Shown here in pieces: positions 5,049 through 5,631 of a stretch of 36,317 nucleotides of DNA. The translations under genes and the position numbers were made by a program. Position 1 is the stretch's first letter; each line of letters opens with the position of its first letter. The stretch is from IMG/VR virus record IMGVR_UViG_2617270990_000004; one strand, written 5' to 3'. The stretch comes from a virus. Taxonomy: Duplodnaviria; Heunggongvirae; Uroviricota; Caudoviricetes. The notes below the pieces were generated by a model, which did no database searches, was not told the DNA's origin, and saw only the letters and a list, made by a program, of their open reading frames with translations.

Positions 5049-5393
5049 ATGACTCAAAACTATGAACTGATTGTGAAAGGGATCCGCAATTTTGAGAATA
5101 AAGTTACGATAACTTTAGCGTTACGGGACAAAAAACGCTTTGACGGTGAAATTTTTGACCTGGACATCTCGCTGGACCGTGTTGAAGGTGCCGCGCTGGA
5201 GTTTTATGAGGCAGCAGCCAGAAGGAGCATCAGACAGGTCTTCCTGGATGTTGCTGCCGGGTTATGTGAAGGGGATGAGCAGTCGCCGGAAAAGCGCCCC
5301 GTAATTTTAGAGGCGCAGGATGTGTTGATAACCTACAGAGGAAAACTACCGGGAATAATTACGGGTTCTCTGAAGAGTCCGCCGAAATGGTAA
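5049..5393 (+). CDS. DUF1327-family protein (YdfR-like) inside the lysis cassette
   Basis: 114 aa, MTQNYELIVKGIRNFENKV...; strong SD GGGGAGAG upstream. Resembles, from recollection, the YdfR protein found between holin and endolysin in E. coli prophage Qin. Confidence 0.6.
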   Translation: MTQNYELIVKGIRNFENKVTITLALRDKKRFDGEIFDLDISLDRVEGAALEFYEAAARRSIRQVFLDVAAGLCEGDEQSPEKRPVILEAQDVLITYRGKLPGIITGSLKSPPKW

Positions 5394-5631
5394 TTTTACC
5401 AGCATATTTTTCATCCAGTAATACAGCAAGCCGCCTGAAAGAGTCTTGTTGTTCCTGAGACCATTTGGGATTGCATGATTCAAACTGGATTGATGCCAGC
5501 GTTGATTGCATCTGTTCCCTTGGAATTGAGAATGCCAGATATGAGAAGGCGACGGTAAGGGTATTCACGTCTTCCCGAAGCCTGGAAATGCTGTCGAGCA
5601 ACTCCTGTAGAGAAATGGTGTTATTGTCCAT
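5359..5631 (-). CDS. hypothetical protein, antisense to the lysis operon
   Basis: 90-aa ORF with GAGGA about 6 nt upstream of its ATG. Its 3' end overlaps the DUF1327 gene by 35 nt, convergently. Confidence 0.3.
   Translation of the reverse strand: MDNNTISLQELLDSISRLREDVNTLTVAFSYLAFSIPREQMQSTLASIQFESCNPKWSQEQQDSFRRLAVLLDEKYAGKITISADSSENP

Follow-up and report, generated by a model that had tools for sequence, protein, structure and literature searches.

Two convergent accessory genes, ydfR and an antisense gene for a 90-residue protein, between the holin and endolysin genes of a lambdoid prophage

The 36,317-nucleotide stretch of viral DNA analysed here (IMG/VR record IMGVR_UViG_2617270990_000004; hereafter, the window) is the late region of a lambdoid Escherichia coli prophage related to Shiga toxin (Stx)-type phages. 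Between its pinholin gene and its signal-arrest-release (SAR) endolysin gene lie 692 bp, close to the 700 bp or so given by an earlier sequence-only reading. This gap holds ydfR, a member of the DUF1327 family, and, on the opposite strand, a gene for a protein of 90 amino acids (aa) whose 3′ end runs into that of ydfR. We interpret the pair as real accessory genes that stand outside the core lysis machinery and form a mobile, moron-like two-gene module, and put the probability of this interpretation at roughly 0.6. It is carried by purifying selection on the antisense gene, by the presence or absence of each gene among related cassettes, by the inheritance of the antisense gene together with the end of ydfR, and by relatives that converge on similarly tailed partners at other loci.

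Layout of the slot

Both genes and their overlap lie where the sequence-only reading had placed them, in a slot whose features and borders are as follows.

4829–5044, plus strand: S21-type class II holin (pinholin), 71 aa (PF04971, 9e-33); left border of the slot
5049–5393, plus strand: ydfR (DUF1327), 114 aa (PF07041, 2e-42; phrog_406, 1e-67)
5049–5264, plus strand: N-terminal β3-α domain of YdfR, residues 1–72, as predicted by AlphaFold2 (AF2)
5290–5316, minus strand: weak terminator-like hairpin, GCGCCUC-9 nt-GGGGCGC then UUUU, from an RNA fold of 5400–5240
5301–5393, plus strand: C-terminal tail of YdfR, residues 85–114, ...VILEAQDVLITYRGKLPGIITGSLKSPPKW, nearly invariant
5359–5631, minus strand: antisense 90-aa gene (phrog_2411, 1e-58; RefSeq WP_000369850.1, 'hypothetical protein')
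5359–5393: 35-nt overlap of the two convergent 3′ ends (YdfR residues 104–114, antisense residues 80–90)
5389–5682: approximate indel relative to cassettes with ydfR that lack the antisense gene, from alignment to phage vB_EcoS-733R4
5638–5642, minus strand: Shine–Dalgarno (SD) sequence GAGGA of the antisense gene, 6 nt upstream of its ATG
5664–5683: inverted repeat CAGCCTG-AGGCAA-CAGGCTG, at the right edge of the indel
5737–6270, plus strand: SAR endolysin, R21 type (PF00959, 5.5e-24); right border of the slot

The antisense frame is a protein gene

The antisense open reading frame (ORF) is a genuine protein gene under purifying selection. It matches the PHROG 2411 hidden Markov model (HMM) over its full length (E 1.1e-58, residues 1–90 on profile positions 1–90 of 90), and the homology search that the sequence-only reading had proposed for its product returned 62 homologues at E ≤ 1e-3. 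Among 16 distinct 273-nt alleles gathered from related loci, the antisense frame is the only one of six to lack stop codons throughout, with the opposite-strand frame also open in some, and the alleles remain intact in frame at 58–99% amino-acid identity. Outside the overlap, variable sites fall on codon positions 1, 2 and 3 as 25/15/49, and ratios of nonsynonymous to synonymous substitution rates (dN/dS) in pairwise comparison with the window allele are 0.16–0.30 at dS 0.31–0.57. Within the 35-nt overlap the count in the antisense frame is 4/7/6, and this lack of third-position bias, together with predicted disorder of the encoded residues, suggests that ydfR is the constrained frame there. 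DNA covering at least 80% of 5300–5740 is present in 1116 of 5426 complete E. coli genomes (~21%), and the family is carried by 3 of 50,697 deposited phage genomes.

From its sequence and predicted structure, the product looks to be soluble and acidic, with three helices. An AF2 model built on 31 sequences predicts helices at residues 8–35, 38–52 and 59–77 and disorder at residues 79–90, with a mean predicted local distance difference test (pLDDT) score of 74. By inspection, the sequence has neither a signal peptide nor a run of hydrophobic residues of transmembrane length, and it is net acidic, whereas the YdfR tail is net basic. No match to the 90-aa protein was found in Pfam, NCBIfam or the sequences of the Protein Data Bank (PDB): an NCBIfam match to 'Mip' (E 0.037) falls far below the cut-off of that family, and the family profile drew only coiled-coil noise from PDB sequences and Pfam. 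Neither this protein nor YdfR matched PADLOC at E ≤ 0.1, Rfam gave no match at E ≤ 1 on either strand of 4600–7000, and nothing about the antisense gene was found in the literature on DUF1327, ybl58 and lysis-cassette morons.

A variable slot between holin and endolysin

S21-type cassettes form a graded series. In the DLP12 prophage, essD abuts rrrD, with neither ydfR nor the antisense gene; in Qin, the order is essQ-ydfR-rrrQ, again with no antisense gene. Phage vB_EcoS-733R4 has a ydfR encoding 116 aa with the tail, a short spacer and R, the endolysin gene, and no antisense gene, a layout that, to judge from shorter two-piece matches, most Stx phages may share. The window has the 733R4 layout plus the antisense gene. 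Because cassettes of this type occur with or without each gene, both ydfR and the antisense gene are accessory to the lysis machinery, and the earlier description of an insertion between holin and endolysin is borne out. Relative to 733R4, which has 21 unrelated bases at this point, the window carries an indel of ~294 bp (~5389–5682) comprising the antisense ORF minus its last codons and ~50 nt of upstream leader. GC content over 5300–5700 is 0.43–0.465, against 0.50–0.565 in ydfR and R, a modest difference.

The slot can also hold other antisense genes. Stx2-converting phage 86 and PhiR5_1 encode longer YdfR proteins (268 and 211 aa), each with a different antisense gene (phrog_1853 in phage 86 and phrog_2572 in PhiR5_1) unrelated to the 90-aa family; the N-termini look alike by eye, and kinship was rejected as not significant by hhalign. 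In both phages the tail motif is internal to YdfR and followed by a long C-terminal extension (L003 1350–2156 for phage 86, L004 1288–1923 for PhiR5_1) that reaches or overlaps the antisense gene. Each slot antisense gene seems to come with its own C-terminal extension of YdfR. In two further loci (L088 and L089) the antisense gene is kept and ydfR is reduced to a 3′ remnant; at 3273–3449 of these loci the YdfR N-domain is replaced, with an 18-codon ORF after the holin and the tail-coding remnant retained.

The translation signals are as the sequence-only reading had described them. The ydfR gene starts 4 nt past the holin stop codon with GGGGAGAG, a strong SD, upstream, and the E. coli alleles of the antisense gene keep its GAGGA. 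The endolysin start at 5737 (AAATATCCATG), 105 nt from the antisense start codon, has no recognisable SD in the sequence, and the nearest upstream plus-strand ORF of at least 30 aa ends at 5671. Since R has neither an SD nor an adjoining upstream ORF of that size, its translation must initiate independently in all cassettes with tailed ydfR. In Qin of strain K-12, the ydfR stop codon overlaps the rrrQ start.

Relatives at other loci

The 90-aa family extends beyond lysis cassettes. A profile search of 1.84 billion representatives recovered only ~20 clusters, and 126 proteins came out of a second, word-indexed search, every one of them from Enterobacterales. We treat members at 25–60% identity as divergent; those in other genera at 25–40% identity keep the conserved motifs. 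In an Atlantibacter prophage, a relative lies antisense between tail genes M and L; another is antisense and adjoins the terminase and portal block; and in a Citrobacter prophage a relative lies antisense between a 238-aa ORF and holin-endolysin-Rz, that is, upstream of the holin. On the late strand, terminator-like hairpins border the module in distant relatives, as is usual for morons. Further loci were scarce, three of four viral contig scans and one metagenome scan giving nothing usable, and two alignments of distant relatives were too divergent for building patterns.

Host chromosomes carry members as well: P0077, on contig L104, is flanked by dinI and bssS, a second lies in Sodalis, and homologues occur in many Serratia species and related genera. 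The dinI-bssS locus, at 4001–4279 of a metagenome contig, encodes a 92-aa homologue placed after the dinI terminator, with a LexA box that precedes only dinI; because it sits past that terminator, this homologue must have its own promoter. A LexA box was considered for the window gene too, given that one homologue adjoins dinI, and is absent from the window. The chromosomal homologue and the many Serratia homologues point to a host origin or a host function for the family.

A recurrent partner tail and a mosaic block

At the phage loci, the family gene runs convergently towards a late-strand ORF, with a slight overlap. The C-terminus of that ORF resembles the YdfR tail, and the resemblance sits at a constant spacing from the stop codon. 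We defined the motif as I-T-G-S-L-x-x-P-x-x-x-stop, and the C-termini compare as follows.

Window YdfR: ...GKLPGIITGSLKSPPKW*
Citrobacter partner (L007): ...GKIRNEKITGSLRVPMKL*
Atlantibacter partner (L097): ...GNIFSDQIFGDLKKPPSY*
L091 partner: ...MRSNRIIGSLITPPEL*
L100 partner: ...LRYKRLTGDILIPLES*

When the C-terminal 12 residues of 1079 ORFs, drawn from 16 loci, were scored against the window tail, values of 25 or more were confined to YdfR orthologues and the partners in L097, L007 and L091 (30, 28 and 25, respectively), with the best of the ~1070 unrelated ORFs at 16. Relatives of the antisense gene thus converge on a tail-bearing late-strand ORF in three independent contexts, with a fourth (L100) marginal. 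The shared residues are encoded by different, synonymous codons among contexts, which places the similarity at the protein level. In L091, as in L089, only a partner remnant remains.

Within E. coli, the last ~30 codons of ydfR, the antisense gene and the spacer form one mosaic block. One locus (L073) is ~100% identical to the window over ~5295–5775 and only 23–85% identical to its left, and among E. coli YdfR proteins the N-domain alleles are strongly divergent beside a nearly invariant tail. The sequence-only reading had suggested an independent moron. Presence/absence polymorphism and relatives outside lysis cassettes agree with that suggestion; inheritance with the ydfR tail makes the gene only half independent.

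YdfR and a possible mode of action

The window YdfR matches PF07041 at 143.8 bits against a cut-off of 25, over profile positions 1–91 of 93, and ydfR is matched in 4219 of 5426 complete E. coli genomes (~78%). The order of holin then ydfR is that of essQ-ydfR-rrrQ in Qin. The AF2 model predicts strands at residues 5–14, 18–27 and 34–43 and a helix at 50–71, followed by a tail modelled with low confidence as a β-hairpin. Fold matches to the N-domain are weak and nucleic-acid-related: RNase H-like folds, the double-stranded RNA-binding domain and Dip of phage phiKZ, with Z no higher than 6.6.

The sequence-only reading gave DUF1327 no assigned function. That statement now needs qualifying, in that a 2026 paper reports that K-12 YdfR was recovered in a two-hybrid screen and that it binds RNase E in the N-terminal half of the enzyme, through a surface located in YdfR residues 1–72 (PMC13232886). 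K-12 YdfR co-purified Rne(1–598) together with DNase-resistant nucleic acid, taken as RNA, and toxicity of YdfR overexpression was not reported (PMC13232886). By virtue of the common N-domain, the window allele may be expected to bind RNase E as well.

These observations allow a mechanism to be sketched. By its position, ydfR would be co-transcribed with holin and endolysin, and homology suggests that its product is most likely a late-phase modulator of host RNA processing or decay rather than a membrane or cell-wall effector. The two-gene module would land at different places in the late operons of temperate phages. Its antisense gene would use its own signals and would probably be on while late transcription is off; after induction, converging late transcription would oppose it. 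The 90-aa product most likely acts by protein–protein contact, speculatively with the conserved tail of its partner. Our guess is a soluble factor that binds protein and is made at times other than the late programme; that it acts on the tail of its convergent partner is possible, at low confidence.

A fuller version of this scheme, which we think unlikely, would make the pair a previously unrecognised mobile two-gene module in which a late effector (YdfR, binding RNase E) is recognised via its β-hairpin tail by the antisense three-helix protein, acting as guard, antagonist or adaptor. The convergent overlap would then couple the two genes, so that, as lysogeny gives way to lytic growth, expression of either one goes with silencing of its partner.

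Weighing the two-gene module

Several findings weigh against the moron-like two-gene module. On the protein side, the model of the 90-aa protein is only moderate at its pLDDT of 74, and a Foldseek search with it against PDB and BFVD returned nothing below E 0.5. K-12 YdfR lacks the tail, so that its reported properties extend to the window allele by inference, and YdfR overproduction altered few transcripts (PMC13232886). The tail motif was defined after the data had been seen; the L100 partner scores 10, within about the top 1% of ORFs and marginal; the L102 partner has no match to the motif; L108 has no convergent partner ORF overlapping the 3′ end of the family gene; chromosomal relatives have no partner; and tailed ydfR is common without the antisense gene. 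Homology of the partners to YdfR is unsupported, a YdfR HMM scoring partner ORFs no better than shuffled controls, and only the comparison anchored at the C-terminus discriminates among them. The expression signals belong here too. A promoter scan upstream of the antisense gene found no sigma-70-like site, and a candidate picked out by hand, TTGCCT-19 nt-TACAAT, has the wrong spacing and would truncate the SD. The minus-strand hairpin (5316 to 5290), which lies 43 nt downstream of the antisense stop codon, inside the ydfR coding sequence, and is conserved in E. coli alleles, is weak: the terminator scan missed it and its fold z-score of −0.87 is not significant. Expression of the antisense gene is accordingly putative and unproven. 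The inverted repeat at 5664–5683 has no T-run and is partly conserved among alleles.

An arrangement of effector and antagonist, with the logic of toxin–antitoxin or immunity systems, would have the three-helix protein bind the tail of the late-strand effector and neutralise or regulate it. Several features speak for such a pair: the tail and the antisense gene are inherited together, the motif recurs beside distant relatives at different genomic positions, the tail and the 90-aa protein are opposite in net charge, and a low-confidence β-hairpin is what would be expected of a segment that folds on binding. We nonetheless consider it unlikely, in view of the frequency of tailed ydfR without an antisense gene, the chromosomal relatives without a partner, the survival of only a partner remnant in L089 and L091, and the overexpression toxicity that was not reported (PMC13232886).

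The sequence-only reading had also raised a role in lysis timing, whereby the antisense protein or the convergent transcript would tune holin, ydfR or endolysin. The location is suggestive: the lysis cassette encloses the gene, which converges on ydfR and begins 105 nt away from where the endolysin gene starts; its insertion removes the translational coupling of ydfR to R found in Qin; and convergent transcription with a 35-nt RNA overlap could in principle interfere. Relatives in tail, terminase and chromosomal sites, however, argue against a function specific to lysis, and many S21-type cassettes manage without the antisense gene. The product has no transmembrane or signal sequence and no likeness to an antiholin or lysis regulator, while selection acts on the protein sequence rather than on RNA alone, with no Rfam match. 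We found no support for lysis timing, regard it as quite unlikely, and favour the moron-like module over it on the strength of presence/absence polymorphism, relatives outside lysis cassettes, the lack of a membrane segment and the lack of membership in any curated lysis or defence family.

A moron for defence or anti-defence would have the 90-aa protein shield the lysogen from other phages or inhibit a host defence. Small, acidic, helical phage proteins are often inhibitors, and the gene has the traits of a moron, namely presence/absence polymorphism, antisense placement in a late operon, lower GC content and a slot shared with unrelated small genes. Against this stand the absence of a PADLOC match and of fold similarity to known inhibitors, and the Serratia-wide homologues, at least one of them at a locus of housekeeping type (dinI-X-bssS), which imply a more general cellular role; we judge a defence function to be very unlikely. 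It is scarcely credible that the antisense ORF is open by chance or was annotated in error opposite a non-coding spacer: for all that it has no Pfam or NCBIfam family and no clear promoter, and that the opposite-strand frame is open in some alleles too, its frame is intact over 58–99% identity with dN/dS of 0.16–0.30 and third-position bias, its SD is conserved, and homologues at 25–40% identity with conserved motifs occur in other genera.

Other features of the window

Around the slot, the late region holds further genes and signals.

1238–1314: tRNA-Arg gene
2807–4678: NanS-like esterase ORF, with domains DUF1737, SASA and DUF6645
4761–4789: terminator-like hairpin ahead of the holin
6829–7407 and 7133–7318: Rz and Rz1, respectively

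The holin (4829–5044) begins M1/M4, resembling a dual start, and RefSeq labels the equivalent gene 'class II holin family protein'. A second insertion, of ~560 bp, lies between endolysin and Rz (6271–6828). It has a strong bidirectional terminator-like hairpin at 6361–6393 and small hydrophobic ORFs at 6563–6694 (43 aa, phrog_4906), 6541–6813 (phrog_3246) and 6348–6560 (phrog_6632); other relatives fill this second slot with an Ant or Rha anti-repressor gene or with a ParE/ParD pair. An insertion sequence (IS)-type DDE transposase ORF (33–1151, minus strand; PF01609) occupies the left end of the window, ahead of both the tRNA-Arg gene and the late region. A 111-aa ORF at 2226–2561 (minus strand), antisense to the late direction and with no Pfam match, corresponds in length and relative position to a vB_EcoS-733R4 gene annotated 'anti-adapter protein IraM', a putative identity.

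Significance

Both genes are already annotated and very common, and the arrangement itself is therefore not new. To this the analysis adds evidence that the antisense gene is under purifying selection, a view of how broad its family is, chromosomal members included, the partner tail that recurs among its relatives and the mosaic boundary inside ydfR. The ydfR gene is among the commonest prophage genes of E. coli, and the antisense gene is in about a fifth of genomes. The conserved partner tail provides a concrete candidate interaction. If YdfR acts on RNase E in late lytic growth, the module would bear on how temperate phages handle host RNA decay and also on what widespread cryptic prophage genes do in lysogens. 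Should the pair prove inert, it would be an ordinary, already annotated pair of hypothetical prophage genes.

Comparison with known systems

The closest counterpart is YdfR of the K-12 prophage Qin, which belongs to the same PF07041 family, stands directly after an S21-type holin and before a lysozyme gene, and aligns closely with the window protein over its first ~72 residues. It differs in having 103 aa, in lacking the ...ITGSLKSPPKW tail and in a stop codon that runs into the start of rrrQ. The 114-aa window protein carries the tail, has the antisense gene next to it and is uncoupled from R. Dip (gp37) of phage phiKZ offers a second comparison, in which the RNase E C-terminal scaffold is bound, by contrast with YdfR, mapped to the N-terminal half. 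Dip is nonetheless a phage-encoded RNase E binder, as reported for YdfR (PMC13232886); the fold match between them is weak and non-specific, with no sequence similarity.

For the antisense gene, gp06 of phage 86 (phrog_1853) and the 86-aa protein of PhiR5_1 (phrog_2572) are alike in slot, in convergence with ydfR and in size (86–104 aa). They are set apart by hhalign probabilities below 1% to the 90-aa family and by longer YdfR partners. The chromosomal 92-aa homologues of Serratia and related genera share 29–36% identity, the AFSYLAF and FES-x-N motifs and the same length with the window protein; in the one context available (P0077/L104), the homologue lies outside any prophage and faces no convergent ORF with the tail.

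The lambdoid morons provide the broader template. Classical examples have a recognisable promoter and terminator, neither of which is convincing here, and the window cassette is very compact at ~294 bp, with its 3′ end built into the neighbouring late gene. Like bor and lom of lambda and the morons of HK97 and HK022, however, it is an extra gene, present or absent among otherwise collinear phages, that lies between late genes; its GC content is below that of its flanks, and it runs opposite to late transcription, as does bor (borD lies opposite the lysis genes of DLP12).

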